Below, piece by piece: positions 24,038 through 39,852 of a stretch of DNA of 40,407 nt. The DNA is from Candidatus Parcubacteria bacterium (lineage in GTDB: Bacteria; Patescibacteriota; Patescibacteriia; UBA9934; GWF2-40-263): contig VGKU01000002.1 in the NCBI GenBank assembly GCA_016882235.1, forward strand, positions 1-40,407, written 5' to 3'. The position numbers and the translations under genes are program-made. The notes under the pieces are model-generated. The model searched no databases and was not told where the DNA came from. It saw only the letters and a program-made list of their open reading frames with translations. Position 1 is the stretch's first letter. Every line of letters starts with the position of its first letter.

Positions 24038-24060
24038 GCGCCCTTTCCGGGCGTTTTTTT
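24038..24060 (+). terminator. intrinsic terminator after the hypothetical gene
   Basis: CGCCC-UUUCC-GGGCG followed by UUUUUUU. Confidence 0.75.
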
Positions 24061-24071
24061 GTCACCGTGCC

Positions 24072-24100
24072 TTGACGCCGTTTTCCCGTGATGGTACTCT
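24072..24100 (+). promoter_or_regulatory. candidate promoter of the rpsL-rpsG-fusA operon
   Basis: TTGACG (24072-77), a 17-nt spacer, then TACTCT (24095-24100), about 47 nt upstream of the rpsL ATG. Confidence 0.45.
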
Positions 24101-24146
24101 TCCCGCGTCTATTTTTTTCGGTCTGACCATGTCGTAAGTCCGGCTT

Positions 24147-24572
24147 ATGCCTACCATCAACCAACTCATCCGCAAAGGGCGCAAATCCAACCCGAGCAAA
24201 TCCAAATCGCCCGCCATGCAGTTCACCTACGATTCGCTTCACCGCAAGCGTACGGACTACCCCAAAGGAAGTTCGTTTAAGCGCGGGGTGTGCGTGAAGG
24301 TGACGACCATGACACCCAAAAAGCCAAACTCCGCCATCCGCAAAATCGCGCGCGTGCGCCTTTCTAACGGGATGGAAGTGAATGCCTACATTCCGGGCGA
24401 AGGCCATAACTTGCAGGAGCACTCTATCGTGCTCATCCGCGGCGGACGTGTGAAGGACCTTCCGGGTGTACGCTACCACATCGTGCGCGGCGTGTTTGAT
24501 ACACAAGGCGTGGACGGCCGCAATCAAGGCCGGTCCAAGTACGGGACGAAGCGGGCGAAGGCGAAGAAATAA
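24147..24572 (+). CDS. rpsL: 30S ribosomal protein S12
   Basis: [12 protein letters not shown]...[56 protein letters not shown]. Confidence 0.98.
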
Positions 24573-24640
24573 TCAACGTCACTCATATTCGGGAGTACTC
24601 CCTGCGCAGGGAGGAAGAACCCCGAAGATAACCTAAAACT

Positions 24641-25108
24641 ATGCGCGGAAAACCAGCTCCACGCCGGAAACTTATTCCGGATCCACGGTACGGCAGCGAA
24701 CAGGTTGCCAAACTTGTCAATTATGTCATGCGCGACGGCAAGAAGACGACTGCCCAGGCCGTTGTGTATGATTGTTTTGATTTGATTAAACAGAAGACCA
24801 AGCTGGAACCTGTAGATGTGTACGATCTTGCTCTGAAAAATGTCATGCCCTCGCTGGAGGTGAAGAGCAAGCGCGTCGGCGGCGCAAATTACCAAGTGCC
24901 GATGTCTGTGCGCGGCGAGCGCCGGTTCGTGCTGGCGCTTCGTTGGATTTTGATCGCCGCCCGCTCAAAGAAAGGCCGTCCGATGGCGCAGAAACTCGCT
25001 GACGAACTCATTGCCGCCTCAAAGAACGAAGGCGACGCCGTCAAGAAACGGTTGGATGTCCAAAAGATGGCCGAGGCGAACCGCGCGTTTGCCCATTTCG
25101 CCCGATAA
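24641..25108 (+). CDS. rpsG: 30S ribosomal protein S7
   Basis: 155 aa. ...PDPRYGSEQVAKLVNYVMRDGKKTTAQ..., VEVKSKRVGGANYQVP and ...ANRAFAHFA C-terminus. Confidence 0.97.
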   Translation: MRGKPAPRRKLIPDPRYGSEQVAKLVNYVMRDGKKTTAQAVVYDCFDLIKQKTKLEPVDVYDLALKNVMPSLEVKSKRVGGANYQVPMSVRGERRFVLALRWILIAARSKKGRPMAQKLADELIAASKNEGDAVKKRLDVQKMAEANRAFAHFAR

Positions 25109-25117
25109 GTCGTGAGG

Positions 25118-25228
25118 GTGTGGAGAAAACACGCAGGTGAGAGGATGCCGTTTTGCCGCAGGCAAAGAGGCGAGCACTCTCCGTCCAAGCCCTGACACGT
25201 GTTCCCTGCGAACCCAATGTCCTGTGAC
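25118..25228. repeat. structured S7|EF-G spacer element, probable degenerate member of the long-hairpin family
   Basis: The 166-nt spacer contains an imperfect hairpin (GGA..ACACG.CAGG 25122-25136 / CCUGACACGUGUUCC 25191-25205). It also carries the family-like blocks GGAGA, GAGGCGAG, CGUCCAAGCCC and ACACGUGU. Confidence 0.35.
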
Positions 25229-25274
25229 CATTGAACCGTTTATCGAATCCTGTTTCCTAAAGCGATGACGATGT

Positions 25275-27362
25275 ATGCCTCGTGAATATCCGATAGAAAA
25301 AACCAGAAACTTCGGAATTTTTGCCCACATTGACGCTGGCAAGACCACCGTTTCCGAACGCGTCCTTTTTTACACCGGTAAGAAGCACAAGATCGGCGAG
25401 GTGCATGAAGGGGAGGCGACGATGGACTGGATGGCGCAGGAGCGCGAACGCGGCATTACGATTACCGCCGCCGCAACGACCTGTTTTTGGAAGGACCACC
25501 GTCTGAATTTGATTGACACTCCCGGCCATATTGACTTTACCGTTGAAGTGAAGCGCTCCATGCGCGTGCTGGATGGAGGCGTTGCGGTGTTTGACGGCGT
25601 CGCTGGCGTGGAGCCCCAGAGCGAGACCAATTGGCGCTATGCGGACGAATACGCCGTGCCACGCATCTGTTTCATCAACAAGTTGGACCGCACCGGCGCA
25701 GATTTTTTCAAAGATCTCAAAAGCGTCCATGACCGCCTGACCAAAAACGCGCATCCCATCCAGTTGCCCATTGGCGCGGAAGCGAATTTTACCGGGATTA
25801 TTGATCTCATCAAAATGCGCGCGTTTTTCTATCGCGATGAACTGGGTGTGACGATTGAAGAAACGGACATTCCCGATGAGCTGAAAGCGCAGGCGGATGA
25901 ATGGCGCGGGAAGCTGTTGGAAGCGGTTGCGGAAAACGATGAGGCGCTGATGAACAAGTACCTCGGCGGCGAGACGATCGCCGAAGAGGAAATCCACGAG
26001 GTTATTCGCAAGGCAACGATCGCCAACCTCTTCGTGCCGGTCATGTGCGGAAGCGCGCTCAAAAACAAAGGCGTCCAGCGTCTGTTGGACGCTGTGGTCG
26101 CCTATTTGCCAAGTCCGCTTGATGTTCCTGCTGTTAAAGGCACGGATCCGGACGATTCGGAAGCAACCTTGGAGCGTCATGCCAGCGATAGCGAGCCATT
26201 TTCCGCGCTCGCGTTTAAAATCGCGGCGGATCCGTATGTCGGCAAACTCGCGTTCTTCCGCGTGTATTCCGGCATGGTGAAAGCTGGTTCCTATATTTTG
26301 AACTCCTCAACCGGCGAGAAAGAACGGGTAAGCCGCATCGTGCGGTTGCATGCCAACACGCGCGAAGAGGTGAGCGAAGTGTACGCCGGTGATATTGCGG
26401 CCATGGTCGGCCTGAAGGGTACGTATACCGGCCATACCTTGTGCGATCCGGAGAAGCCGATCCTGCTTGAAGCCATTGTGTTTCCCGAGCCGGTTATCTC
26501 CATTGCGATTGAACCCAAAACCAAAGCCGACCAGGAGAAAATGGGCATGGCTCTACAAAAGCTTGCCGAGGAAGATCCGACCTTCCGTGTGCGTACGGAC
26601 GAGGAGACCAACCAGGTGATCATTTCCGGCATGGGCGAGCTCCATCTGGATATCATTGTGGACCGCATGAAGCGCGAGTTTTCGGTGGAATGTAATGTGG
26701 GCGCGCCGCAGGTTTCTTATCGCGAAACGATCAAGGGCGACGCGGATGGCGAGGGGAAATACATCCGTCAGTCCGGTGGGCGTGGGCAGTATGGCCATGC
26801 GCTTGTGCGTATTGAAAAATTGCCGGCCGGTTCAGGCATTGAGTTTGAAGAGGAAATCAAGGGTGGAGCCATTCCCAAGGAATACTTCAACCCCATTGAG
26901 AAGGGGGTGCGCGAGGCGGCCGACCGCGGTGTGTTGGCCGGGTATCCGCTGTTGGACGTCAAGATTACTCTGTACGACGGTTCGTTCCACGAAGTGGACT
27001 CATCAGAAGCCGCGTTTAAGATCGCCGGTTCCATGGCGTTTCAGGCCGCGGCGAGAAAAGCGGGTGTGGAGTTGCTCGAACCGATGATGAAAGTGGAGGT
27101 CGTGACACCAGAAGATTTCATGGGCACGGTCGTGGGCGATCTGAATTCCAAACGCGGGCAAATTCAGCAGATGACGGACCGCACCGGCTCAAAGGTGATT
27201 GACGCGTTCGTACCGCTTGCGGAAATGTTTGGGTACGCGACGACCTTGCGTTCCATTACGCAAGGCCGCGCCAGTTACTCCATGGAGTTTGACCATTACG
27301 AAGCCGTCCCGACAAACGTGGCAAAAGGGATTATTGAAAAGCGCGGCGGAAAGACCGCGTAA
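25275..27362 (+). CDS. fusA: elongation factor G
   Basis: 695 aa. [33 protein letters not shown], and EF-G domains IV/V ([12 protein letters not shown]). Confidence 0.98.
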
Positions 27363-27366
27363 ATGC

Positions 27367-27458
27367 AAAACGACCGGCCGTGGACAATGCTTTGCCTTCA
27401 GGCCAACGGATGTATCGCCGTTGTCCCCTCGGGAGAGCATCGTCTGGCCGGTCGTTTT
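27367..27458. terminator. long hairpin acting as a bidirectional terminator between the convergent fusA and methyltransferase genes
   Basis: AAAACGACCGGCC (27367-79) pairs perfectly with GGCCGGUCGUUUU (27446-58). An inner hairpin is CAACGG-AUGUAUCG-CCGUUG. A/U runs lie on both sides. Confidence 0.6.
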
Positions 27459-28038
27459 ATTTTTTATAGAGGGAGACCTGTCCATCTACTGCAACCGGTT
27501 TCCACGTCGGGAAGGTAAACGTGTTGGAGACAACGCGCGCGCCCTCCGGGAGTTCCCGTCGCAGTTTTTGTTCCAGCCGCGCCATGGAGTCCTGCAGTTG
27601 GTAGAGAAGCACTACATCCGTTTTGGAAAGATCAGCATTCCAATACGATTGTTGGTGGATCCGCACGCGCCCATCGAGTCCTTTACGTTTGGCTCTCCAA
27701 CGTGAGAAGGCCGTGAGCGCCGGATAAATCTCGTACCCTTCGGCCGTGCCGGCACCAGCCGTGAGCGCGGCGAAGAGCAACATCCCATCGCCTGAACCCA
27801 TGTCCACCACATGGTCTGTGTCCGAAAATTGCGCGAGGCGCATCATCGTCGCGACCCGTTTTTTCTGGCTTGGCATCAATGGTGCGCCGTGGAACAACAG
27901 GGGAATCAGCAGCCCGCCGATCCAGAGGAGGCAGGCAAGGAGGGCCAAGATGACAAGCAGAGAGCCAACGAGTAGGATAAGAGAAGGGGATGGAGACACA
28001 AGAAAAGAGGAATATGGAACAAGAAAAATGGATTGCAT
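27457..28038 (-). CDS. class I SAM-dependent methyltransferase with an N-terminal TM anchor
   Basis: Motif I VVDMGSGDGMLLFAA and an N-terminal hydrophobic helix LILLVGSLLVILALLACLLWIGGLLIPLLF. Substrate unknown. Confidence 0.75.
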   Translation of the reverse strand: MQSIFLVPYSSFLVSPSPSLILLVGSLLVILALLACLLWIGGLLIPLLFHGAPLMPSQKKRVATMMRLAQFSDTDHVVDMGSGDGMLLFAALTAGAGTAEGYEIYPALTAFSRWRAKRKGLDGRVRIHQQSYWNADLSKTDVVLLYQLQDSMARLEQKLRRELPEGARVVSNTFTFPTWKPVAVDGQVSLYKK

Positions 28039-29027
28039 CTCACTACGAGATCGGCAAGGTGCTTCGCGTGACGCCCATCGCGGCCGGACTCATCCACAAA
28101 ACGTACGCGATCAAGACGAACACAGGCGAGTATATCATACAGCGCCTGCATCCGTTGTTAGCTTCCCAGAAGGTTGGCAAGGATGTGCTCGCGGTGACGC
28201 GGCATCTGCGCGCAAACGGATTCCCATCGCCCGAATGCGTCTTGACCCGAACAGGGCGCGTGCATGCGCGTCGCGGAAAAGACGTGTGGAGAATGCAGAC
28301 CAAACTGCCGGGCAAAACCGTTGATCGCATCACAAGCCCCGCGCTGGCGTTCAAGGCGGGCGAAATGTACGCGCGGTTCCACCGCGTGATGGACGGCATT
28401 GCGCATCGGTTCGGGTCGGATTTGGTCCTGCACGAGACGCCAAAGGTGTACGCGAAGTTTCTGTCCGTCATGAAAAAAAATCGGAGGAGTCCGCTCATGC
28501 GCGAGGTACAGGACGAGGTCGCGTTTCTCACGCGCGAGCTCAAAGCGCATCTGCTCCCCGCGAACCTCCCGAGGCGCGTGATCCACGGCGATCCGAAGAT
28601 TTCCAATATTCTTTTTGTACGCGGGAACGCGAGCGCGATTATTGATCTGGATACCTGCAATCGGCACACCATCCTTGTAGAAGTAGGAGATGCGTTGCGT
28701 TCGTGGTGCGGCAAGCGCGAGGACGATCCGCGCAATACCTTTTCCCTCCCGTTGTTTCGCGCGGCCTGGAAGGGGTATCAAAAAGGGGCGGCGGGGTGGT
28801 TGACCAAACGCGAGATCGCGCTGGTGCCCAAGGCGATCGGAACGATCACGCTTGAGCTGGCCGCTCGGTTTTTGACGGACGCGTTTGAAGACAGCTATTT
28901 CGGTTGGGATTCTACGCGTTACGAAAGCCGCCGCGCGCATAACCTCGCCCGTTGCCGTGGTCAGCTCGCGCAGTTTAGGGATTACAAACAGAAGCTCGGA
29001 AAGATACAACGGATCCTTAATGCCTGA
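28014..29027 (+). CDS. phosphotransferase-family kinase (APH / choline kinase / type II homoserine kinase fold)
   Basis: Brenner motif VIHGDPKISNILF, the IIDLDT metal-binding motif, and N-terminal ..AGLIHKTYAIKT..EYIIQRL. Start is ATG 28014 or ATG 27990; either overlaps the divergent methyltransferase start. Confidence 0.75.
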   Translation: MEQEKWIASHYEIGKVLRVTPIAAGLIHKTYAIKTNTGEYIIQRLHPLLASQKVGKDVLAVTRHLRANGFPSPECVLTRTGRVHARRGKDVWRMQTKLPGKTVDRITSPALAFKAGEMYARFHRVMDGIAHRFGSDLVLHETPKVYAKFLSVMKKNRRSPLMREVQDEVAFLTRELKAHLLPANLPRRVIHGDPKISNILFVRGNASAIIDLDTCNRHTILVEVGDALRSWCGKREDDPRNTFSLPLFRAAWKGYQKGAAGWLTKREIALVPKAIGTITLELAARFLTDAFEDSYFGWDSTRYESRRAHNLARCRGQLAQFRDYKQKLGKIQRILNA

Positions 29028-29044
29028 GCGTGTCAAAGGCAATA

Positions 29045-29075
29045 AAACACCCCCGGCATGGCCGAGGGTGTTTTT
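29045..29075 (+). terminator. intrinsic terminator after the kinase gene
   Basis: ACACCC-C-CGGC-AUG-GCCG-A-GGGUGU followed by UUUU. Confidence 0.7.
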
Positions 29076-29333
29076 GGCATCGGAACAGTGAAGTGTGTTT
29101 CAGGCGTGACAGAGTTTCTTCATCCTGTGCAAGCGCTTCATCCTTGTGCTGAACGGTTCCGGGCCTCTATCGCGATAATGCACAAGACCGCAATATATCA
29201 TAGAAAGCTGAAATTGTCAAGGGGTTTGACACTTCGTCCCGCTTTTTGCTACGTTGCACTCTGCTGTTTGCGCGGGCTAAGTCCCGCGACTGTCCTCTCC
29301 TCACACTCTCATCTTCTTCCATTCCTACCCCCT

Positions 29334-29747
29334 ATGACCCAGCAATTCCGCCGCATCCTTGATTTGGTCCGCAAAACAGGGGATACCCTCGTGGTTACGG
29401 ACCCCGATGGGGACGATGTCTTTGTGGTCATGGGAATGGAGCAGTATGAGTGGTTAATTGGAGAGGAAGCCGGAGAAGCAAAAGAGGCTGAAGAGACGAA
29501 AGAGGCTGACGAAAAAGACATCTGGGGGGCCATGAAGCCGGCACATGAGGACGGCGAGACATGGGATCTTTCCAAAATGGATAAAAACGAATTATCCGAT
29601 CTGGAAGAACAATATCGGCAGTTTGCCCACAGTCGTGTGGAAGAGGCCGTGAGCGAGAAAACGGCAAATCAGCCAAAAAATGGGGAAAAACCTAAAGATG
29701 ATGACGAATTGGGAGAAGAGCAATTTTACCTTGAACCGGTGGAATAG
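29334..29747 (+). CDS. hypothetical acidic protein; the N-terminal ~45 aa look faintly Phd/YefM-antitoxin-like, and the C-terminus is a D/E/K-rich tail
   Basis: 137 aa from ATG 29334. MTQQFRRILDLVRKTGDTLVVTDPDGDDVFVVMGMEQYEWL, then EEAGEAKEAEETKEADEKD... Coding status rests on ORF length and low-complexity composition. The track ORF from 29058 is unlikely to be fully translated. Confidence 0.45.
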   Translation: MTQQFRRILDLVRKTGDTLVVTDPDGDDVFVVMGMEQYEWLIGEEAGEAKEAEETKEADEKDIWGAMKPAHEDGETWDLSKMDKNELSDLEEQYRQFAHSRVEEAVSEKTANQPKNGEKPKDDDELGEEQFYLEPVE

Positions 29748-29754
29748 TCAGCTC

Positions 29755-29783
29755 TTGCGAGTTTTTTAGGCTTTTGTTATACT
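29755..29783 (+). promoter_or_regulatory. candidate promoter of tuf
   Basis: TTGCGA (29755-60), a 17-nt spacer, then TGT-TATACT (29778-83), about 59 nt upstream of the tuf ATG. Confidence 0.55.
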
Positions 29784-29841
29784 TCCGCTCGTTGCGTTTT
29801 CCAACACATCACCTAAACCTATCACCTAATACCTAACGTTT

Positions 29842-31035
29842 ATGGCAGAAGTTTTTGAGCGAACAAAGCCGCACGTCAACGTCGGGACCATCGGTCACGT
29901 TGACCATGGAAAGACCACGACGACCGCGGCCATCCTTGCGGTGCTTGCCGCCAAAGGCATGATCGCGCAGAAGAAGGGCGTGGACGACCTGGACAAAGCC
30001 CCAGAGTCAAAGGCTCGCGGCATTACGATCGCGACCGCCCACTGTGAGTATGAGTCCGACAAGCGCCATTACGCGCACGTGGACTGTCCTGGGCACGCGG
30101 ACTACATCAAGAACATGATTACGGGCGCCGCCCAGATGGACGGGGCTATATTGGTCGTTTCCGCAGCCGATGGCCCAATGCCGCAGACCCGCGAGCACAT
30201 TCTGCTCGCCCGCCAGGTCGGTGTGCCGGCAGTCGTTGTCTTTTTGAACAAAGTAGACCAGGTGGACGATCCGGAACTGATTGACCTCGTGGAAGAAGAA
30301 GTGCGCGATCTTTTGAAAAAGTATGATTTCCCAGGCGATGAAGTGCCGGTCATCCGTGGCAGTGCGCTCAAAGCGCTTGAGAATCCGGGCGACGAGGCGG
30401 CATCCAAGCCGATCATGGACATCATCAACGCGCTGGACACCTTTATTCCCGAGCCAATCCGCGATGTTGAAAAGCCGTTTTTGATGCCGATTGAAGATGT
30501 CTTCTCCATTGAAGGCCGCGGCACAGTGGTGACTGGTCGCATTGAACGAGGACAGGTGAAGATCAACGAGGAAATGGAAATCGTCGGGCTCAAAGAAGAA
30601 TCCTCCAAAACCGTCGTGACCGGCGTAGAGATGTTCAACAAACAGCTCTCCGAAGGACGTGCCGGTGACAATGCGGGCCTGCTCCTGCGCGGCGTGAAGA
30701 AGGAAGAAGTGGAGCGCGGCATGGTGCTCGCCAAGCCCGGTTCCATCACCCCACACACCGAGTTTGAAGCGGAAGTGTATGCGCTGACGAAAGAGGAAGG
30801 CGGGCGCCACAAGCCGTTCTTCAAAGGGTATAAGCCGCAGTTCTACATCCGAACAACGGATGTGACCGGCGAGGTGACTCTTCCGGAAGGGACGGAGATG
30901 GTGATGCCGGGCGATACGGTGAATGTGACCGTGAAGCTCATCCAGCCGGTTGCGCTTGAAGAAAAGATGTCGTTTGCCATCCGCGAGGGTGGCCGAACGG
31001 TCGGCGCCGGCGTGGTCACAAAAATCATTAAGTAA
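29842..31035 (+). CDS. tuf: elongation factor Tu
   Basis: 397 aa. [30 protein letters not shown] and SAL motifs, with the full EF-Tu domain II/III sequence. Confidence 0.99.
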
Positions 31036-31045
31036 CGACTTCTGT

Positions 31046-31149
31046 AAAACGGCGCCTGTTCGTTTCACGGGTGCCCACTGACCTTGTTCGTCGTACGTTT
31101 GCGTACAAGGCAGGGGCTTGGAGTCCGTTGGACGAACATCCGTCCGTTT
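31046..31149 (+). repeat. 104-nt long hairpin after tuf (terminator-like; possible diverged member of the hairpin family)
   Basis: AAAACGG (31046-52) pairs with CCGUUUU (31143-49), and UGUUCGU (31057-63) with ACGAACA (31132-38). An inner hairpin is GUACG-UUUG-CGUAC. It contains CACGGGUGCCCA, similar to the family block CACGGGUGUCCA. Confidence 0.4.
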
Positions 31150-31200
31150 TGCAGAGGCCTTCGTAGCAAATTCAATTCCTCATCGTTCTTTCTGACAACT

Positions 31201-31536
31201 GTGGCCACAAAGGATCAACAAACAACTGAAGACAAGTCCCGCATCCGCATCAAAATCAAGGCGTACGACAGCAAGATCATTGATCAGGCGACAGAGACGA
31301 TTATCAAGACGGTGGAGCGTACGGGCGCCAAAGTGGTCGGACCGATTCCGCTTCCGACGGAAAAGCGTAAGTACACAGTCAACCGTTCCACATTCGTCCA
31401 TAAGGATTCGCGCGAGCAGTTTGAAATGCGCGTCCACAAGCGTCTGATTGATATCACGGAGCCTACGGAAAAAACGATTGACGCCTTGATGAGCTTGAAC
31501 TTGCCGTCGGGTGTGGATGTAGAGATTAAAACATAG
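31201..31536 (+). CDS. rpsJ: 30S ribosomal protein S10
   Basis: [70 protein letters not shown]. Start assigned to GTG 31201 and uncertain; there is no clear SD. Confidence 0.9.
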
Positions 31537-31788
31537 GACCTCGCGCGAGATTGGAGATCTATCGGCTTGCGCCTCCGGGTGCCGCCTCCCCGTCGTTTTC
31601 CGACGGGCTGGCGACATCCTCGGCGCGCGCTGACCGTTCATCCAAGGGAGCGCGAAGTCATCCCTCATCTTCAGAACGGGGAAGAAAGATCCATTGGAAA
31701 ACCTTCCCGTGCTTCCGACGATGAAACAGGAGTCCCGCGTATTCATTTAACAGACCATTCCTCAAAACCTTTTTTGGAAGTGTTTTGA

Positions 31789-31838
31789 GCTAGAAGTCGG
31801 TCGCTGACCATCCTCGGCGCACGACTTCTAGCTTTTAT
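31789..31838 (+). terminator. terminator-like hairpin inside the S10|L3 spacer
   Basis: GCUAGAAGUCG (31789-99) pairs perfectly with CGACUUCUAGC (31822-32) around a 22-nt loop, followed by UUUUAU. It is immediately preceded by hairpin CUCAAAAC / GUUUUGAG (31761-89). Confidence 0.5.
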
Positions 31839-31850
31839 GCTAATTGTTAG

Positions 31851-31923
31851 GAAGAACGAATTCAGCTACTTATCCAACGAATCTATTGGTCCATGCGTAG
31901 ATTCGTAGCTCAATTCGTTCTTC
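31851..31923 (+). other. 73-nt extended hairpin ending 11 nt before the rplC start codon
   Basis: GAAGAACGAAUUCAGCUAC (31851-69) pairs 18/19 with GUAGCUCAAUUCGUUCUUC (31905-23). The inner stem is CGAAUCUA / UAGAUUCG. Confidence 0.6.
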
Positions 31924-31934
31924 GTAACACCGGT

Positions 31935-32564
31935 ATGCCTTTCCTCATCGGACGCAAAATTGAAATGGCCCAGCAGTTTAAGGATGACGGCACCGTCGTT
32001 GCCGTGACGCTTGTTAAGGCAGAGCCAAACATCGTCACGCAGGTGCGCACCAAAGAGAAAGATGGCTACGGTGCGGTGCAGTTGGGAGCCGAGAACGTCG
32101 GAGCGCTGAACAAGTCGGAGCAGGGGCATCTCAAGGATTTGCCGCTTGTGAAGACCTTGCGCGAATTTCGCATTACGGATGGGGCAGAGTACACCCGCGG
32201 GCAAGAAGTGCGCGTGGACGCGTTTACGCCCGGGATGCGCATTGATGTCGTCGGCTTTTCCAAAGGCCGCGGTTTTGCGGGCGTTGTCAAGCGTCATCAC
32301 TTTGAAGGCGCAAAGGCCACCCACGGCAACAAAGATCAAATCCGCATGCCCGGTTCCATCGGGTCGCAGAGGCAGGGAAAAGTGATTAAAGGCCAGCGGA
32401 TGGGCGGACATATGGGGGACGAGCGCGTCACGGTGAAGAATCTTGAGGTCGTTTCCGTGGATCCCGCGACAAATGTCATGGCGATTAAGGGTGCGATTCC
32501 GGGCGCGCGCGGAGGCCTCGTGCTGATCCGCTCGACATCAACCACAACGATATGGCACGCGTAA
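31935..32564 (+). CDS. rplC: 50S ribosomal protein L3
   Basis: MPFLIGRKIEMAQQF.DDG..VAVT.V...PN.V.Q.RT.EKDGY.AVQLG ... GFAGVVKRH.F.G..ATHG. Start at ATG 31935. Confidence 0.96.
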   Translation: MPFLIGRKIEMAQQFKDDGTVVAVTLVKAEPNIVTQVRTKEKDGYGAVQLGAENVGALNKSEQGHLKDLPLVKTLREFRITDGAEYTRGQEVRVDAFTPGMRIDVVGFSKGRGFAGVVKRHHFEGAKATHGNKDQIRMPGSIGSQRQGKVIKGQRMGGHMGDERVTVKNLEVVSVDPATNVMAIKGAIPGARGGLVLIRSTSTTTIWHA

Positions 32565-33187
32565 CGCTGTACAACCGCGAAGGCAAAGGGGTCGGGGAGA
32601 TTGAACTGTCTCCCGCCCTCTTTGACGTGGATTCCAATGAAGGCCTTGTGCATGATGCCGTCGTCGCACAGGAGGCGAATGTCCGCGTGGCGATCGCGCA
32701 TACGAAAGATCGCGGCGAAGTGGCCGGCACCGGCAAGAAGCCCTGGAAACAAAAAGGGACTGGCCGCGCCCGCCACGGGTCGCGCCGTTCGCCCATTTGG
32801 GTGGGCGGAGGGATTACCTTTGGGCCGCGCAGTATCCGCAATTTCGCGCTGAAGTTTAACAAGAAAGCGCGACGCAAAGCGTTGGCCATGGCACTCACTG
32901 ACAAAGTGCGGGGTGGCGCTCTGTGTGCGGTTGAATCACTCAGCGTGGAAGAAGGCAAGACCGCCGCGCTCGCGCGTTTGCTTAAAAACCTTCCGGTCGC
33001 CGGCAAAAAGACATTGATACTTGTAGAGGCTGAAAACCGTGAGGTGGGCAAAGCAGCGCGCAACATTCCAGAGGTCGCAACGATGCCAGTACACTCGCTC
33101 AATCTCGTTGAACTGCTGAAGTTTCCAAGCGTTCTTATCTCCAAGCAGGGGTTGGACGAGCTGACGGCGCATTTTAAGCGCGCATAG
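32552..33187 (+). CDS. rplD: 50S ribosomal protein L4
   Basis: ...KPWKQKGTGRARHGSRRSPIWVGGGITFGPR... Overlaps the rplC stop. Confidence 0.96.
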   Translation: MARVTLYNREGKGVGEIELSPALFDVDSNEGLVHDAVVAQEANVRVAIAHTKDRGEVAGTGKKPWKQKGTGRARHGSRRSPIWVGGGITFGPRSIRNFALKFNKKARRKALAMALTDKVRGGALCAVESLSVEEGKTAALARLLKNLPVAGKKTLILVEAENREVGKAARNIPEVATMPVHSLNLVELLKFPSVLISKQGLDELTAHFKRA

Positions 33188-33189
33188 AT

Positions 33190-33585
33190 ATGGGTATCCT
33201 CAACCGCTTCAAGAAAAAGCAAGAACAGCAGGCGCTTGGGCCGGACACGAAGGCCGTCGAGCAGGCACCCGTCGCTTCTAAGGCCGCCGTGAAGGCTGGT
33301 GCGGTCGATTCGCGCGTCGTGATCGCTCCGATCGTGACGGAAAAATCCGCGTATCTGGCCGCGCAAGGGCAGTATGTGTTTGAGGTGGAGCGCAGCATGA
33401 ATAAGGTGCAAGTGCGCGACGCGATTCGCGTGATGTACGGTGTGTTGCCCCTGTCGGTCAATATGGTCCGGCAGCGGGGAAAGAAGGTACGCTTTGGACG
33501 CACACAAGGGAAACGCAAAGGATGGAAGAAAGCGATCGTGACGTTGCCAAAAGGGAAAACGATTGAGGTCTACGAAGGGGTCTGA
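33190..33585 (+). CDS. rplW: 50S ribosomal protein L23 (with a ~35-aa N-terminal extension)
   Basis: The core IAPIVTEKSAYLAAQGQYVFEV....NKVQVRDAI..MYGV.P..VN.......KVRFGR..G.R..WKKAIVTL is L23. It is preceded by the K/Q/A-rich MGILNRFKKKQEQQALGPDTKAVEQAPVASKAAVKAG. Confidence 0.93.
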   Translation: MGILNRFKKKQEQQALGPDTKAVEQAPVASKAAVKAGAVDSRVVIAPIVTEKSAYLAAQGQYVFEVERSMNKVQVRDAIRVMYGVLPLSVNMVRQRGKKVRFGRTQGKRKGWKKAIVTLPKGKTIEVYEGV

Positions 33586-33597
33586 GAATAATCAATT

Positions 33598-33722
33598 GAT
33601 CTTTTTCAACAGAAGAGGAGATTCCGTCTTTCCAGGAAGCCAGCCGCTCAGACGCCGAACCACTTTGATCTGAACGTGGCAGGGCCCAGAAAGATGAAAA
33701 CTCGCTTCTGTGGAAAAAGATT
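33598..33722 (+). repeat. long-hairpin element, copy I (L23|L2 spacer, 125 nt)
   Basis: An 18-nt closing stem pairs GAUCUUUUUCAACAGAAG with CUUCUGUGGAAAAAGAUU (16 WC, 1 G.U, 1 mismatch). It shares the post-stem AGGAGAUU and the GCCAGCCGC block with copies C and J. Confidence 0.7.
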
Positions 33723-33726
33723 CACT

Positions 33727-34575
33727 ATGCCAGTCAAACGCTACAAACCAACAACCGCCGGACGACGCCTTTCAAGCGTGGATACGTTTGAGGATGTCAC
33801 GCGAACAAAGCCGGAGCGCAAACTGACCGTCCATCGCAAACAGCATGCCGGGCGCAAGGGCGGGAAGATTACGGTGCGCCATCGCGGCGGCGGAGCCAAG
33901 CGCCGTATTCGCCTGATTGATTTCAAGCGCGACAAGTTTGAGATTCCAGCCAAAATTGCGTCCATTGAATACGACCCGAACCGCGGCGCGCGCATCGCCC
34001 TTTTGCACTACGCAGACGGCGAGAAGCGCTACATGATCGCGCCCCAAGGGCTCGGCGTGGGCGATTCGGTCGTCTCGTCCAAACAGAAAGGCGAGATCCA
34101 GACGGGCAATCGGTTTCCCCTGGAGTTCATCCCGATCGGCATTGAGATCTATGATGTGGAGCTCCTGCCAGGCAAAGGCGCACAGGCGGTGCGCGGTGCC
34201 GGCACCTTCGCACAGCTCATGGCCGTGGAAGGCGCATTCGCAACCATCAAATTTCCCTCGGGAGAAATGCGCATGGTTCCCAAGCAGTGCATGGCGACCA
34301 TTGGGCACGTGTCCAACCCGGATCGTCGGCTCATTCGCTGGGGCAAGGCCGGGCGCACACGTCATCGCGGCTTCCGTCCGACCGTACGCGGGAAAGCGAT
34401 GAATCCGGTGGATCACCCCCACGGCGGTGGCGAAGGGCGTAATCCCATTGGGCTCAAGCGTCCCAAGACCCCGACTGGTAAGCCGGCCATGGGCGTCAGG
34501 ACGCGCCGCAGGAAGGCGTCAGACCGGCTGATTGTCAAGCGCCGCAAGAAGGGACGATTTGTAGGCGGCAAGTAA
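33727..34575 (+). CDS. rplB: 50S ribosomal protein L2
   Basis: [14 protein letters not shown].., ...GGGAKRR.R.IDF.R and ...[14 protein letters not shown]. Start at ATG 33727. Confidence 0.97.
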
Positions 34576-34595
34576 AAGGTTTCTAACCATTCCCT

Positions 34596-34895
34596 ATGGC
34601 ACGAAGTTTGAAAAAAGGACCCTACGTCCATCCGAGCCTCCTCAAGAAACTCTCGCGGATGCGCGTTGGCGATGCGACCCCGATCAAGACATGGGCGCGC
34701 GCCTCCACAATCACTCCAGAGATGGTCGGGTTTGTCTTTTCCGTGCACAATGGGAAGGATTTTATCAAGGTCCGAGTGGTTGAGAACATGGTCGGGCATA
34801 AGCTCGGCGAGTTCTCGCCGACGAAGAAGTTCATCCGCCACGGCGGAAAAATGCAAAAGGCGCAGGCCGCAAAGGCCACCGCGCCATCCACATAA
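34596..34895 (+). CDS. rpsS: 30S ribosomal protein S19
   Basis: [11 protein letters not shown]...L.KK.......[36 protein letters not shown]. Confidence 0.97.
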
Positions 34896-34904
34896 GTTAT
34901 TGAA

Positions 34905-35024
34905 GGACGAACGACATGGAGACCAGTTTGGGTGCACACGTGTCCAATCCCGAAGCTGTCGCAGAGCGAGAGCGAGGCGATGGAAAGGACCCGTAAGCCC
35001 AAAGTGGACCGATGTCGTTCGTCC
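34905..35024 (+). repeat. long-hairpin element, copy A (S19|L22 spacer, 120 nt)
   Basis: A perfect 13-bp closing stem pairs GGACGAACGACAU with AUGUCGUUCGUCC. The second helix is CCAGUUUGGG / CCCAAAGUGG. Conserved blocks are GUGUCCAAUC, GUCGCAGAGCGA, GCGAGGCGAUGGA and CGUAAGCCC. Confidence 0.8.
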
Positions 35025-35032
35025 CTCTCCCT

Positions 35033-35407
35033 ATGGAAGTGAAGGCTTACGCGCGCCACATCCACATGTCTCCGCAAAAAATCCGCCTGGTCGTGGATTT
35101 GATTCGAGGCAGACAGGTGTCGGTAGCGCGCTCACAACTCCAGTTCATGAATAAGGCCGCCGCAGGGCCGGTGTTGAAGCTCCTCAATTCCGCGGTGGCG
35201 AACGCCTCGCACAACTTCAAGCTGAATCCTGCCACCTTGTATATAAAGTCCGTGACGGCCGACGACGGGACGACGATCCACCGCTGGAAGCCGCGCGCGC
35301 ACGGGCGGGCAAATCCAATCCGCAAGCGCACAACGCACATTTCCATTGTGCTTGGGGAGAAGGTGGAGAAGCAGAAGAAGCAGGAGAAAACTAAGAAAGC
35401 GAGCTAA
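35033..35407 (+). CDS. rplV: 50S ribosomal protein L22
   Basis: MEVKAYARHIHMSPQKIRLVVDLIRG..V..A...L........A..V.KLL.SA.ANA. The canonical start is ATG 35033. The upstream ATG 35012 lies inside the 3' arm of hairpin copy A. Confidence 0.95.
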   Translation: MEVKAYARHIHMSPQKIRLVVDLIRGRQVSVARSQLQFMNKAAAGPVLKLLNSAVANASHNFKLNPATLYIKSVTADDGTTIHRWKPRAHGRANPIRKRTTHISIVLGEKVEKQKKQEKTKKAS

Positions 35408-35418
35408 GACGAACGGAT

Positions 35419-36063
35419 ATGGGAAATAAAGTTCACGCACGAGGTTTCCGCATCGGCGTCATCCGCGGCTGGGACGGGGTCTGGTTTGCCGACCGCAAAT
35501 CTTTCCGCCACTTGCTTCGTGATGATGTGCGCATCCGCGCGTTTTTGCTCAAGGATCTCAAGGAAGCGCAGGTGGATCATGTGGAGATTGAACGCTCGCG
35601 CGGCAATCTCAAGATCAATATCTTCAGCGCCAAGCCTGGGATCATTATCGGCCGCGCGGGATCCGGGATTGAAGAACTAAGCAAGAAGCTCAAGCAGGAG
35701 TTTTTCCCCGGCAAGCGGGTGAATTTGAACATCAATGTCAAGGAACTCCAGCGTCCGTCGCTCTCCGCCAAGGTGGTGGGCGAGCAGGTGGCCGCCGAAA
35801 TCGTCAAGCGCATGCCGTTTCGCCGTTCCATGAAGTCCGCGATCGAGCGCGTGATGAAAGCCGGCGCGTTGGGTGTGAAGATTGTCGTGAGCGGACGGCT
35901 CAACGGCGCGGATATTGCACGACGTGAAGCGATCGCGCACGGAAAAATCCCCCTGCACACCCTGCGCAGTGACATTGACTTCGCGAATGTGCGCGCAGAG
36001 ACGATCTGGGGCACGATCGGCGTCAAAGTCTGGGTGAATAGAGGTGAGGTCTTTGAAGAATAA
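35419..36063 (+). CDS. rpsC: 30S ribosomal protein S3
   Basis: MGNKVHARGFRIGVIRGWD..WFA.., the KH domain (..VDHVEIERS...L.I.I..AKPGIIIGR.G..I) and the C-terminal GRLNGA.IAR.E. Confidence 0.97.
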   Translation: MGNKVHARGFRIGVIRGWDGVWFADRKSFRHLLRDDVRIRAFLLKDLKEAQVDHVEIERSRGNLKINIFSAKPGIIIGRAGSGIEELSKKLKQEFFPGKRVNLNINVKELQRPSLSAKVVGEQVAAEIVKRMPFRRSMKSAIERVMKAGALGVKIVVSGRLNGADIARREAIAHGKIPLHTLRSDIDFANVRAETIWGTIGVKVWVNRGEVFEE

Positions 36064-36068
36064 ACAGA

Positions 36069-36184
36069 ACCACTCCCATTGGATCATTTCGGGCTGATGG
36101 GTTCCGTTCGATCGTCTTGCTCTGTGGCGTTCCCGCGAGACGATCGGATACCTGCCTGTCCAAACTGATCGCAACTGGAGTGGT
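36069..36184 (-). repeat. long-hairpin element, copy D (S3|L16 spacer, 116 nt), inverted relative to copies A/B/C/J
   Basis: The closing stem pairs ACCACUCC with GGAGUGGU, and an inner 9-bp stem pairs CGAUCGUCU with AGACGAUCG. Its reverse complement aligns along its length with copy A: CAGUUUGG, GGUAUCCGAUCG~CGUGUCCAAUCC, CACAGAGCAAGA~CGCAGAGCGAGA, CGAUCGAACGGAACCC~CGAUGGAAAGGACCC and AGCCCGAAAUG~AGCCCAAAGUG. Confidence 0.7.
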
Positions 36185-36196
36185 GCTGAAACAACT

Positions 36197-36616
36197 ATGC
36201 TGCTTCCCAAGAAAGTAAAACATCGCAAATGGCACAAAGGCCGTGCCCGCAACAAGCGTCTGGCGACGACGAAGACAGCCATCGCGTTTGGCGCCTACGG
36301 CCTTAAAGCCACGACCGGCGCCTGGGTAACCTCGCGTCAGATTGAGGCCGCCCGTCGCGCCATGACGCGCGCGATCAAGCGCGGCGGCAAAATCTGGATT
36401 CGCATTTTTCCAGACAAGCCAGTCACGACCAAAGGTTCCGAGATGCCGATGGGAAAAGGCAAAGGAGCGGTGGACCATTATGTCGCCGTGGTCCGGCCAG
36501 GCACCGTGATGTTTGAAATGGGAGGCATCAGCGAGGACTTGGCGCGTCGCGCGCTTGAACTCGCCGCGTATAAGCTTCCGGTGAAAACCAAGATCATCGG
36601 CCGTGACCTTGAATAA
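36197..36616 (+). CDS. rplP: 50S ribosomal protein L16
   Basis: [16 protein letters not shown]....A......AFG.YGLKA.....[40 protein letters not shown]. Confidence 0.97.
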
Positions 36617-36617
36617 T

Positions 36618-36773
36618 ATGGACGAGAAGAAACTGCGCCAAGAGCTTGAAGAAGCCCGCACGCGCCTGAAAGAATTGACCTTCAAGAACGCCGCGAGCCA
36701 GCTCAAGCAGATCCGGCAGATTCGCGAGACCAAAAAAGCAATCGCGCGGCTGTTGACCCGATTGGCGAACTGA
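36618..36773 (+). CDS. rpmC: 50S ribosomal protein L29
   Basis: A 51-aa ORF not in the supplied track (below the size cutoff): MDEKKLRQELEEARTRLKELTFKNAASQLKQIRQIRETKKAIARLLTRLAN. It occupies the canonical position between rplP and rpsQ and is a typical L29 helical hairpin. Confidence 0.88.
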   Translation: MDEKKLRQELEEARTRLKELTFKNAASQLKQIRQIRETKKAIARLLTRLAN

Positions 36774-36774
36774 T

Positions 36775-37023
36775 ATGACAAACACTCCGCACACCACTCG
36801 ACGCACGCTCACCGGCACGGTCGTGTCCGCAAAAATGAACAAGACCATTGTGATTCGGGTTGACCGGACGATTGTGCATCCCAAGTACGGCAAACGCTAT
36901 GTCCGTTCGCGCACGTACCATGTGCACGACGAGGTTGGATCCTTTCAGGTAGGGGAGGTGGTCCAGTTTCAAGAGTGCCGGCCGTATTCAAAGACGAAAC
37001 GTTGGCGTGTTCTAAAAAAATAA
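36775..37023 (+). CDS. rpsQ: 30S ribosomal protein S17
   Basis: ..TLTGTVVSAKMNKTIVIRVDRTIVHPKYGKRYVRSRTYHVHDE......GEVV.F.ECRP.SKTKRW.V. Confidence 0.96.
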   Translation: MTNTPHTTRRTLTGTVVSAKMNKTIVIRVDRTIVHPKYGKRYVRSRTYHVHDEVGSFQVGEVVQFQECRPYSKTKRWRVLKK

Positions 37024-37029
37024 ATAGAT

Positions 37030-37149
37030 GGACGAGCCATGTTGGATGCAGGTTGGGCGCACGGGTGTCCAATCGCCAGAGCGGGAGAGTGCAACCGCGA
37101 GGCGATGGACGGGACTCGTAAGCCCCACATGCGCTGACATGGCTTGTCC
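37030..37149 (+). repeat. long-hairpin element, copy B (S17|L14 spacer, 120 nt)
   Basis: The closing stem pairs GGACGAGCCAUGU with ACAUGGCUUGUCC (12 WC plus 1 G.U). The inner continuous helix is GUCCA(A)UCGCC / GGCGAUGGAC. Same length and block order as copy A. Confidence 0.8.
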
Positions 37150-37155
37150 ACTCCT

Positions 37156-37527
37156 ATGGTACAGCTTAGGTCCATGCTCGTGGTTGCCGACAACTCGGGC
37201 GCAAAAAAATTACAGGTGATCCGCGTGCTTGGGGGCTACCGGAAACGGTATGCCCGCATCGGCGATCTTGTGGTTGCCGCCGTGAAGCAGGCCGTCCCGC
37301 ACGCCACCGTCAAAAAGAGCGATGTCGTGACCGCCGTGATCGTGCGTACGCGCAAGGAAATGCGTCGTCAGGACGGGACCTACATTCGGTTTGACGAGAA
37401 CGCCGCGGTCATCATTGACAAGAAGACACGAGACCCCAAGGGGACGCGCATCTTCGGGCCGATCGCGCGCGAATTGCGTCCGCTCGGGTTTGGAAAAATT
37501 ATTTCGCTCGCGCCTGAAGTGCTCTAA
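37156..37527 (+). CDS. rplN: 50S ribosomal protein L14
   Basis: [42 protein letters not shown]...VKK.DVV.AVIVRT.K. Start at ATG 37156. Confidence 0.97.
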
Positions 37528-37530
37528 AGA

Positions 37531-37653
37531 GACCTGTGTCCAAATGAGAGGAGATTGCGGCGCGCGGATGTCCAAGGGAATCGCGGGAGCGTGCTCCTGC
37601 GAGGCGATGGACGGAAATCGCCAGCCGCAAGGTCGCTCATTTGGAAACAGGTC
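37531..37653 (+). repeat. long-hairpin element, copy C (L14|L24 spacer, 123 nt)
   Basis: The 18-nt closing stem pairs GACCUGUGUCCAAAUGAG with CUCAUUUGGAAACAGGUC (17/18). The second helix is UUGCGGC / GCCGCAA. Blocks are AUGUCCAAGGGAAUCGCG and GCGAGGCGAUGGACGG. Confidence 0.8.
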
Positions 37654-37659
37654 ACACGT

Positions 37660-37983
37660 ATGAAAATCAAGACGGGAGACAAAGTCCGTATCATCGCGGG
37701 CAAAGATAAGGGGAAGGAAGGGAACATCTTGCAGGTGTTTCCCGAGCTTGGGCGTGTGGTCGTGGAAGGTGCCAATATCATGACGCGCCATCTCAAGGGG
37801 CGCGGCGAGCGCGCCGGGCAGAAGATCCAGTATCCCTCGCCGTTGTCTGTGTCCAATGTCCAGCTTGTTTCCCCCAAAACCGGTAAGGCCGGGCGTGTGG
37901 GGTATAAGCGGATTGAAAAGGACGGGAAGCGCGTAAAGATCCGCGTCCTGCGCGTCAAAGGCGCGAAGGAAGATATCGAATAG
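37660..37983 (+). CDS. rplX: 50S ribosomal protein L24
   Basis: MKIKTGDKVRIIAGKDKGKEGNILQVFPE..RVVVEG.NI..RH.K (KOW motif). Start at ATG 37660; the track ORF from 37555 runs through the hairpin element. Confidence 0.96.
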   Translation: MKIKTGDKVRIIAGKDKGKEGNILQVFPELGRVVVEGANIMTRHLKGRGERAGQKIQYPSPLSVSNVQLVSPKTGKAGRVGYKRIEKDGKRVKIRVLRVKGAKEDIE

Positions 37984-37986
37984 GCT

Positions 37987-38526
37987 ATGGCGATCAAAGA
38001 AACCTACAAAAAAGAAGTCGTTCCCAAACTGAAGGAACAGTTCGGGTACAAAAATATCCACGCCGTGCCGACGGTTGCATCGGTGACGCTGAACATCGGG
38101 CTGGGAAGCGGGCTCAAGGATGCCAAGTATCTTGAGACAGCCGAGCAGACGCTCACGCGCATCACGGGACAGCGGCCGGTCAAAACGCGCGCGCGCAAAT
38201 CGATCTCCAACTTCAAGATTCGCGAAGGAATGGTGGTCGGTCTGAGAGTGACGGTACGCGGCAAGCGCATGTGGGATTTCCTGGAGAAGCTTCTGCGCGT
38301 GTCCCTTCCGCGCGTGCGCGACTTTCGTGGCCTTCCTCCCAAGGCGTTTGACGGACGCGGGAACTATTCCATCGGCATGAAGGAACACATCGCCTTTCCA
38401 GAGATTCGCAGTGATGAGATTGAGTCCATTCATGGCCTGCAGGTCACCATCACAACCACGGCGACGACGGATGAGGAAGGGAAGGCCTTACTCATCGCGC
38501 TCGGACTTCCCTTGAAGCAAACGTAA
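37987..38526 (+). CDS. rplE: 50S ribosomal protein L5
   Basis: ...[22 protein letters not shown]....V.LN.G........L..A...L..ITGQ.P..T.A.KSI..FK.REGM.VG..VT.RG..MW.FL. Confidence 0.97.
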
Positions 38527-38566
38527 AGGAAGTGTAAATTGGACTGTTTTGACACCGTCCACCCCT

Positions 38567-38752
38567 ATGGCAACCGAAAACCAAATTGCCAAATCCCGCA
38601 AAAAACCCAAGTTTACGACGCGCATCGTGCGCCGATGTTGGCGCTGTGGGCGTCAGCGTTCATTCATGCGCGTGTTCGGCCTGTGCCGTATCTGTTTTCG
38701 GGAGCTGGCGAACCGCGGAGAGATTCCGGGCGTGCGTAAATCGAGCTGGTAG
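38567..38752 (+). CDS. rpsN: 30S ribosomal protein S14, Zn-ribbon (type Z) form
   Basis: 61 aa. [61 protein letters not shown] with the CxxC...CxxC motif. Confidence 0.95.
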
Positions 38753-38764
38753 CTAAAGAAATTT

Positions 38765-38890
38765 CGATCGTTACAAAATTGGATGAGATTTCGATGCATG
38801 GGGAAGCCAGCCGTCGAGCCGTCGCAGAGCGACAGGGAGACGGTGGCGGAGTCCCCAGGAATCAAAATATCGCCAATTTTGTAACGATCG
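38765..38890 (+). repeat. long-hairpin element, copy J (S14|S8 spacer, 126 nt)
   Basis: A perfect 18-bp closing stem pairs CGAUCGUUACAAAAUUGG with CCAAUUUUGUAACGAUCG. It has the post-stem AUGAGAUU. The interior GUCGCAGAGCGACAGGGAGACGGUGG aligns with copy A's GUCGCAGAGCGAGAGCGAGGCGAUGG. Confidence 0.8.
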
Positions 38891-38896
38891 CCCTCT

Positions 38897-39289
38897 ATGA
38901 TGACCGATCCCATTTCCGACATGCTCGCGCGTATCCGAAACGCGCAGGCGGTACACAAGACAGAGCTTACCTTTCCTTTTTCAAGGATCAAATTTGCCAT
39001 TGGCAAAATTTTGGAAGCCGAAGGGTATGTCGCGAAGGCCGAACAGGTCAACGTCGGCAAGTTTCCTGCCCTGCGCGTGGAGCTGAAATACGATCGCAAA
39101 CAGCCGGCCATCCGCATGATCCGGCGCATCAGCAAGCCGGGACGGAGGGTGTACGCAAAGTCCGGAGAGCTCCCACGCGTCCTCTCTGACCTTGGCATCG
39201 CCATCATCTCTACTCCCAATGGTCTGATGACCAACAAGGAAGCACGCGCTCGCCGTTTGGGCGGCGAAGTGATTTGCGAAATTTCATAA
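38897..39289 (+). CDS. rpsH: 30S ribosomal protein S8
   Basis: MMTDPISDMLARIRNAQAV.K......P.S..K..I..IL..EGY........ ...GR.VY........P.V....GIAI.ST..G.MT...AR....GGEV.C. Confidence 0.97.
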   Translation: MMTDPISDMLARIRNAQAVHKTELTFPFSRIKFAIGKILEAEGYVAKAEQVNVGKFPALRVELKYDRKQPAIRMIRRISKPGRRVYAKSGELPRVLSDLGIAIISTPNGLMTNKEARARRLGGEVICEIS

Positions 39290-39294
39290 CGCCT

Positions 39295-39852
39295 ATGTCT
39301 CGCGTCGGCAAAAAACCTATCGTGATTCCCGCCGGAGTTGATGTCACCATGGACGGTTCTTTGGTGCGCGTGAGCGGTCCTAAAGGGGAGCTGTCTGAAA
39401 CCCTGCATCCCACGGTCCGCGCTTCTGTGGTGGAGGAAGACGGCGCGCGTGTGGTGCAAGTCACGGTCACGGATCCTTCCGTGAGTACGCAAGCGGCGCA
39501 GTGGGGGACGGCGCGCGCGCTTTTGCAGAACATGGTCACAGGCGTCACCGCAGGATTCTCACGCCAGCTCGAGGTGAACGGCGTTGGGTTTCGCGTGAAC
39601 ATGAAGGGAAAAGACCTCGTGCTCAACCTGGGGTTCTCGCACGATGTGCCGTTTGGGATTCCCGAGGGGATCCAGGCGGCGGTGGAGGGCAACGTGATTA
39701 CGATCAGCGGCTCCTCGCGCCAACGCGTGGGAGAGATCGCCGCGCAGATCCGGCGTCTGCGCAAGCCGGAGCCTTATAAAGGCAAGGGTATTAAATATGT
39801 CGGCGAAGTGATCCGCCGCAAGGCCGGTAAGGCGCAAAAGGCGGGTGAATAA
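39295..39852 (+). CDS. rplF: 50S ribosomal protein L6
   Basis: [28 protein letters not shown] ... [16 protein letters not shown]. Start at ATG 39295. Confidence 0.97.

Follow-up and report, generated by a model that had tools for sequence, protein, structure and literature searches.

A family of palindromic long-hairpin elements in the intercistronic spacers of an Uhrbacteria ribosomal-protein operon

The tuf-S10-spc ribosomal-protein cluster on contig VGKU01000002.1 (assembly GCA_016882235.1) of Candidatus Parcubacteria bacterium lies at 31.0–39.3 kb of the 40,407-nt stretch analyzed here (positions 1–40,407, hereafter the window, whose coordinates are used for all elements), and its intercistronic spacers harbor a family of palindromic hairpin elements that is the subject of this report. 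Read from open reading frames and from Pfam-annotated maps of contigs with an identical L16, the gene order is tuf, S10, L3, L4, L23, L2, S19, L22, S3, L16, L29, S17, L14, L24, L5, S14, S8, L6, and the same maps confirm the identities that a first-pass annotation of this DNA had given to the genes flanking six spacers of 132–144 nt each. That annotation reported one long-hairpin element per spacer; all six are real and lie where it placed them, while a seventh copy, X, escaped it and an additional size-matched hairpin, T, is of unproven kinship (Table 1). The window family comprises seven copies of 120–126 nt, of which A, B, C, I and J share one orientation and D and X have the opposite one; A and B are, as previously described, exactly 120 nt each. 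The possibility that the spacers are assembly artefacts, raised at the same time, is excluded because four independent assemblies from different sequencing runs are 99.97–100% identical to the window across the elements.

Table 1. Hairpin elements of the tuf-S10-spc cluster, in window coordinates
Feature	Coordinates	Strand	Spacer	Fold z	Remarks
T	31036–31161	.	tuf–S10		family-sized hairpin, kinship unproven
X	31537–31659	-	S10–L3		directly 3' of the rpsJ stop codon; inverted family member
I	33598–33722	+	L23–L2	-5.2	
A	34905–35024	+	S19–L22	-7.3	
D	36067–36186	-	S3–L16	-5.8	inverted family member; first-pass ends 36069–36184
B	37030–37149	+	S17–L14	-7.4	strong alignment with A and C
C	37531–37653	+	L14–L24	-7.6	
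J	38765–38890	+	S14–S8	-8.2	perfect 18-bp basal stem

Each of the six spacers folds as one long imperfect hairpin with a minimum free energy of -52 to -76 kcal/mol, and 0 of 200 dinucleotide shuffles fold as well (z between -5.2 and -8.2). The terminal stems quoted in the first-pass annotation are reproduced, with 18 of 18 positions paired in J, 17/18 in C, 16/17 in I and 15/16 in A. These terminal 10–18 bp differ among copies, though the two ends of each copy pair with one another, and it is the interior that is conserved. The conserved interior blocks described earlier are indeed shared, but each is common to subsets of the copies only (mainly A/B/C, or I/J/C) rather than to all. In a sliding-window fold scan, whole-length hairpins of ~120 nt were confined to 31.0–38.9 kb, the sole exception being a 92-nt hairpin just 3' of fusA (27367–27458), which is followed by a U run; in one related operon (L005, see below) only 2 nt separate fusA from the next gene.

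The claim that these hairpins form a real family and are not chance palindromes is borne out both by pairwise alignment and by covariation. Alignment scores reach z=13 for A against B, followed by C against B (10.9), I against J (8.2), C against J (5.6) and C against I (5.4). When ten sequences are brought into family orientation and aligned, the consensus forms a rod of 37 pairs in which 88.9% of the paired cells hold a pair, compared with 63.8% in column shuffles and 33–42% when the partners are slid, and 33 of the 37 pairs have changed on both sides. None of 500 shuffles reached any of the observed measures, so that the compensatory stem changes with preserved pairing noted in the first reading stand.

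The orientation of the copies required one correction, as D had been taken to run in the same direction as the others. Aligned to the reverse complement of D, A scores z=10.7 and B z=8.0, compared with 2.6 and 3.7 for the respective forward alignments, and under R1, a covariance model trained on A, B, C, I and J, the minus strand of D scores 30.6 bits and its plus strand 10.5. A scan of the 40 kb with R1 returned two further hairpins of ~125 nt, X and T, and no others. X, which lies outside the R1 training set, scores 38.5 bits on the minus strand, and its reverse complement aligns to J with z=6.2 (forward 1.0) and to C with z=4.2 (forward 1.4). T folds with -62 kcal/mol and shares its basal stem with a 32-nt hairpin in one relative (L009), while it is not present in two others (L005 and L007). 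Under an improved model, R2, it scores 19–22 bits on either strand, no better than generic hairpins as gauged by the wrong-strand scores of true members (20–42 bits), and T was rejected as a family member.

The first-pass annotation had proposed that orthologous operons be searched for empty sites, and we compared the window with twelve Uhrbacteria operons of 76–89% S3 identity (L005, L007, L009, L010, L011, L020 and L022 among them). Named S3 homologues belong to Candidatus Uhrbacteria or Patescibacteria. Most of these relatives have 1–17 nt at the six junctions, as in TAA-tgt-ATG at S19–L22; the exceptions are a 29-nt L23–L2 spacer in L011 and any spacer occupied by an element, a remnant or an unrelated hairpin. 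The L23–L2 junction, site of I, measures 1–29 nt in the relatives; S19–L22, site of A, is empty in six of them (3–6 nt); S17–L14, site of B, is empty in L005 (8 nt); and L14–L24, site of C, is empty with 1–5 nt. The compactness of these junctions identifies the elements as insertions. A 12-nt match, TCGCCAATTTTG, in the L23–L2 spacer of L011 is expected by chance given how much sequence was searched, and was set aside.

Three copies have orthologues at the same junction, each kept in one lineage: A at S19–L22 of L011 (3770–3890; 4 compensatory pairs), J at S14–S8 of L007 (12955–13080; 4 compensatory pairs in the 18-bp basal stem and none broken) and X directly after the S10 stop codon of L005 (6451–6574). 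Up to eleven relatives carry empty sites. L007, which has J, and L020, with a spacer of 3 nt, are sister genomes, and A is missing from L010, which is nearer to the window than L011 is. In the 35-nt S14–S8 spacer of L009 only the last 21 nt of J, its 3' arm, are left (TCGCCAGTTTTGCAACGATCA), and this solo arm is a deletion remnant. L022 carries an inverted J-like copy, cut by the contig end, at L2–S19, a junction that is empty elsewhere. Across genomes the family has been found at eight different junctions, all of them inside the S10/spc operon. Together, these comparisons show elements that apparently entered the 1–17-nt intercistronic gaps of the S10/spc operon in an ancestor of this Uhrbacteria group, in either orientation, and that after entry would have been kept in some lineages and deleted in others.

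The orthologous copies are 75–81% identical, which places them beside the flanking ribosomal-protein genes (72–78%) and far above the third codon positions of those genes, which are saturated at 42–49% identity; the unpaired nucleotides that flank the hairpins are unalignable between orthologues. Every orthologous pair differs by four fully compensatory pair replacements. Judged by this pattern of substitution, the elements are evidently old and constrained and not decaying junk.

What maintains the pairing is central to how the elements are understood, as compensatory changes alone are no proof of RNA function. Structured RNAs typically show a large excess of G·U pairs. We aligned the two arms of each element purely by Watson-Crick complementarity, which leaves no strand bias, and discarded G·U counts taken from the RNAalifold structure, which are biased by the way that the structure is derived. 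The arm-against-arm alignments contain 27 G·T and 24 A·C mismatches, the same whether counted in mRNA sense or in family orientation, and the transcribed strand thus shows no surplus of G·U relative to A·C; sense and antisense fold energies are likewise mixed, the sense strand not being consistently the better folder. Since G·T and A·C are equally frequent, the palindromy is strand-symmetric, a property of the DNA rather than specific to the RNA. This symmetry weakens the case for a sequence-specific RNA function without excluding it, and it fits both insertion in either orientation and arm-to-arm correction by template switching during replication, a process that can create and maintain hairpins (PMC8794818). 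Upkeep of the pairing would then combine such arm-to-arm correction with selection on overall fold stability, for which the data provide partial support; selection for an RNA motif confined to one strand is at odds with the pattern.

These observations bear most directly on the idea that each hairpin is a dedicated cis-acting RNA, an intercistronic punctuation mark or operator. Cleavage by RNase III or a different RNase would divide the polycistronic mRNA into segments and stabilize it, or binding of a protein, ribosomal or not, would adjust translation of the next gene. Phage T7 early mRNA carries RNase III sites, and the S12–S7 intercistronic hairpin of E. coli is bound by S7; these too are hairpins between the genes of a polycistronic mRNA and near the next start codon. 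Unlike the window family, however, they are single, fixed in orientation and tied to one site, while the elements described here are multi-copy, lie in both orientations and are absent from sister genomes. A cis-acting role would account for the strong purifying constraint relative to synonymous sites and to the adjacent unpaired flanks, for internal-loop sequences conserved among both paralogues and orthologues, and for the presence of copies in the operon alone within the window. The long, nearly continuous helices predicted for the elements would also suit a double-strand-specific RNase, as RNase III-type cleavage occurs within ~20 bp or more of coaxial double-stranded RNA and the predicted helices are long enough. 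In contrast, the inverted copies D, X and that of L022 would place the complement of the conserved core in the mRNA (for D and X, two of the seven window copies), close relatives live entirely without the elements, so that they are dispensable, and neither the G·U balance nor the sense-strand fold energies nor Rfam, in which nothing matches, point to a functional RNA. We therefore consider a dedicated cis-acting RNA unlikely.

The search for a known family to which the elements might belong was negative, in agreement with the first-pass statement that the sequence was not recognized. No Rfam family matched anywhere in the window at gathering score, with only noise at E<=10 over 24000–39500; element A had no blastn match at E<=10 among 5,426 complete E. 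coli genomes, which argues against ERIC homology; blastn against plasmids returned no match, and viral contigs matched neither GCGAGGCGAYGGANNGNANNCGNNAGCC, the core motif of A, B and C, nor the J-type pattern. Matches to GCGAGGCGAYGGANNGNANNCGNNAGCC in GTDB representative genomes (3) and JGI metagenomes (4) were all rejected by the covariance model. The R'' (RYYYAAC) and R' (GTTRRRY) signals of integron attC sites are absent within 40 nt of either end, on both strands, in all copies. No terminator-like site coincides with any element, the 3' flanks being C/T-mixed without T runs, and no promoter is associated with the elements. A small peptide was rejected as well, as the internal ATGs of A and B give different frames across their shared core and no peptide is conserved, and the notion that the variable basal stems act as guides toward the flanking genes produced no consistent signal, and none common to orthologues.

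In kind, if not in sequence, the family has clear counterparts. The ERIC/IRU elements of Enterobacteriaceae are imperfect palindromes of ~120–127 bp that lie in transcribed intergenic regions, including the inside of operons, in either orientation and patchily between related genomes, with long predicted RNA stem-loops (Delihas 2011, PMC3184786), and the ERIC-like size and location noted at first reading therefore hold, without ERIC sequence homology. The window family differs in having no TA flanks or target-site duplication, in its variable termini and conserved interior, and in the confinement of all copies seen to a single essential operon. Correia/NEMIS of Neisseria, RUP, Nezha and other miniature inverted-repeat transposable elements (MITEs) are likewise small, non-coding, multi-copy, co-transcribed long hairpins with insertion polymorphism between close relatives (PMC3184786), whereas the present family has no conserved terminal inverted repeat, no target-site duplication and no partner transposase in the window. 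Set against the definition of a MITE, which calls for terminal inverted repeats conserved between copies and for target-site duplications (Delihas 2011, PMC3184786), the family is small, non-coding and multi-copy, with a long stem-loop, insertion polymorphism and new sites, and it lacks those two end features.

Of the roles that the first-pass annotation left open, a MITE-like insertion fits best, because the elements occur in both orientations, are patchily present, have left a deletion remnant and occupy a new site in another lineage; the part of the definition that concerns the ends is what fails. The family is accordingly ERIC/MITE-like in behavior without the defining end signatures of those elements, and is so far seen only in the ribosomal-protein operon. 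REPINs, which are doublets of REP sequences associated with RAYT transposases, are hairpins of ~100 nt that are non-autonomous and persist over long evolutionary times. The window elements resemble them in size, persistence and lack of autonomy, with the difference that REPINs are conserved at the hairpin ends, which the REP units form, and variable in the middle, and the window family shows the reverse.

The same lack of end signatures is what would be expected if the family had arisen locally, by template switching or local duplication within the operon and through serial copying without any transposition machinery. The symmetric pairing (27:24) agrees with such an origin, as do the absence of a target-site duplication, a conserved terminal inverted repeat and a transposase in the window, the finding that the most similar paralogues are neighbors (A and D; B and C), and the observation that the operon of each relative contains unrelated repeat or hairpin families of its own. 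Hairpins are documented to arise and be maintained through template switching, with strand-symmetric pairing and apparent compensatory changes that lack strand-specific wobble (PMC8794818), which is the pattern found here. However, switching copies nearby sequence, and by itself leaves unexplained how homologues of ~120 nt came to be dispersed in both orientations over eight junctions, as far as 7 kb from one another, and across different genomes; nor do the basal stems show similarity to the flanking genes. We judge purely local copying to be improbable.

Strand symmetry is also compatible with a function of the DNA itself, in which the palindromes, within a region of very high transcription, would serve as orientation-independent sites in double-stranded or cruciform form. 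A topoisomerase or nucleoid protein might bind there, as has been proposed for REP/BIME elements, to which gyrase and IHF bind. That both orientations are retained and constrained, that pairing is symmetric between strands and that the copies cluster in the operon with the heaviest transcription all agree with such a role, but sister lineages live without the elements and 45 maintained base pairs are more than a protein-binding site would require, which makes a DNA-level function very improbable.

The reading that we favor, at a probability of roughly 0.55, is that the hairpins constitute a new, lineage-specific family of non-coding palindromic insertion elements, akin in kind to ERIC, Correia and MITE elements but a new family in sequence, that is tolerated and constrained by its self-folding. 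As mechanism, a selfish or neutral insertion that was first tolerated and then constrained because it folds on itself is the best supported, with much the same slight lean in its favor. Several points weigh against this reading. No target-site duplication accompanies the elements, either in the comparison of filled with empty sites or in the flanks, where no shared word of at least 5 nt abuts the ends, bar one chance-level case at D. No terminal inverted repeat is conserved between copies, with only ~3 nt (GAY...RTC) recurring, and no transposase is encoded in the 40-kb window. All seven copies fall within 8 kb of operon sequence, and the remaining 30 kb are free of them, which is unexpected under random transposition. 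Unpaired positions are conserved as well (64–83%), suggesting constraint beyond mere folding, and the stop/start geometry described next follows automatically from insertion into tiny spacers and is not independent support.

The first-pass annotation had placed each element 4–12 nt before the next start codon, in line with the 5–10 nt that we measure between stem and start codon (5–12 nt with the first-pass end of D). Within a 420-nt context, 97–100% of the pairing probability of each element is internal to it (81% for X), the unpaired nucleotides between stop and start codons total ~9–18, and the 15 nt before each start are mostly paired. In experiments in E. coli and Haloferax, termination-reinitiation coupling collapses at a linear spacer of ~20 nt (PMC10666635). 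As an observation apart, no Shine-Dalgarno-like sequence accompanies the gene starts of the operon (31000–39300), which follow C/T-rich runs such as CCCTATG.

Under the insertion-element interpretation, each copy would be co-transcribed with the operon, and its ~125 inserted bases would fold into a rod whose base brings the upstream stop and the downstream start to within ~9–18 unpaired nucleotides of one another. This self-containment probably makes the insertion survivable where genes nearly abut, and the need to stay folded, or else to be cleanly deleted, would explain why orthologues evolve far more slowly than synonymous sites. Judging from the geometry, termination on the upstream gene would let the ribosome open the stem at its base and so free the start region of the next gene.

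A more ambitious version of the insertion model holds that the mobile hairpin specifically colonizes the stop-start junctions of translation-apparatus operons and has been co-opted as a multi-site post-transcriptional control or punctuation device. We think this rather unlikely, and keep it in view because of the exclusive location in the operon, the conservation well above that of synonymous sites and the conserved internal loops. If it were true, a single RNase or RNA-binding protein would have a grip on many ribosomal-protein cistrons at once in a bacterium of the Candidate Phyla Radiation (CPR). Regulators known from such bacteria are few, and their genes lack start signals of the Shine-Dalgarno type.

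Repeat elements are normally all but missing from essential operons whose genes are tightly coupled, and the genomes of CPR bacteria are small and compact. The core ribosomal-protein operon studied here has taken up ~1 kb of palindromic DNA and kept it long enough for synonymous sites to saturate, a natural test of how much structure a translationally coupled operon tolerates between its cistrons and of whether self-folding neutralizes an insertion. The family also bears on how palindromes are kept up, by arm correction at the DNA level or by selection at the RNA level. A practical consequence is that hairpins of this kind shift gene-start calls in metagenome annotation: L14 is called 6 codons short in L001 (2098–2451), a contig of the window strain, and S8 is called 12 codons long in L009 (9000–9428).

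The studied family seems to be one case of a general proneness of this Uhrbacteria group to acquire self-folding inserts in the operon, as long hairpins or repeat palindromes unrelated to it occur in comparable spacers of relatives, namely in L011 at S3–L16 and around the S10–L3 leader, and in L009 at S5–L15, at S17–L14 and after S10. An unrelated 79-nt hairpin (4999–5081) fills the S3–L16 spacer of L011, the junction that D occupies in the window, and GCTACCAG-type repeats flank the S10–L3 leader of L011 on both sides (572–680 and 860–942). L009 has an unrelated 176-nt hairpin at S5–L15 (11155–11330) and palindromic arrays of the 8-mer CCTACTTT at S17–L14 (7270–7575); the same 8-mer also fills the L2–S19 spacer of L020 (9288–9319).

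Further inserts flank or interrupt the cluster in the window strain itself. The S7–fusA spacer (25109–25274) is a structured 166 nt, another insertion dissimilar to the family, and measures 3–14 nt in L005 and L007. Past the window end, on L001, the L15–SecY spacer is 178 nt (6103–6280) and the SecY–adk spacer 162 nt (7544–7705), the latter with direct repeats of GGTGCCTGACCCCTG; in L005, L007 and L020 these spacers measure 3–10 nt and 62–98 nt (with an extra gene in L005), respectively. The inserts at S7–fusA, L15–SecY and SecY–adk were each rejected as family members, as they show no similarity to it. A 40-nt L5–S14 spacer with a small hairpin (38527–38566), 5 nt in L005, may be the collapsed remnant of an insert.

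Downstream of X, the S10–L3 spacer contains a core of ~190 nt (31665–31835) that is kept in all six Uhrbacteria compared and has no Rfam match; a terminator-like hairpin, GCTAGAAGTCGG...CGACTTCTAGC, with TTTT after it closes the core, which may be an attenuator or leader for rplC. Between this core and the gene, immediately 5' of the rplC start, lies an A+T-rich hairpin of ~85 nt (31845–31929) with 30-nt arms that are 87% complementary, found only in the window strain among the six relatives aligned. The window as a whole has a G+C content of 57%, compared with 42–51% in the relatives, and no L30 gene lies between S5 and L15, as seen in L001. Far from the operon, the gap between the glutamate dehydrogenase gene and leuS (8144–8700) holds a 33-nt repeat in four tandem copies (…CCCTGTGTCATCCCGAGCGAGCG…), together with two copies, 175 nt apart, of a 123-nt unit, and the motif GTCATCC(C/T)GAGCGAGC recurs in the SecY–adk spacer of L009.

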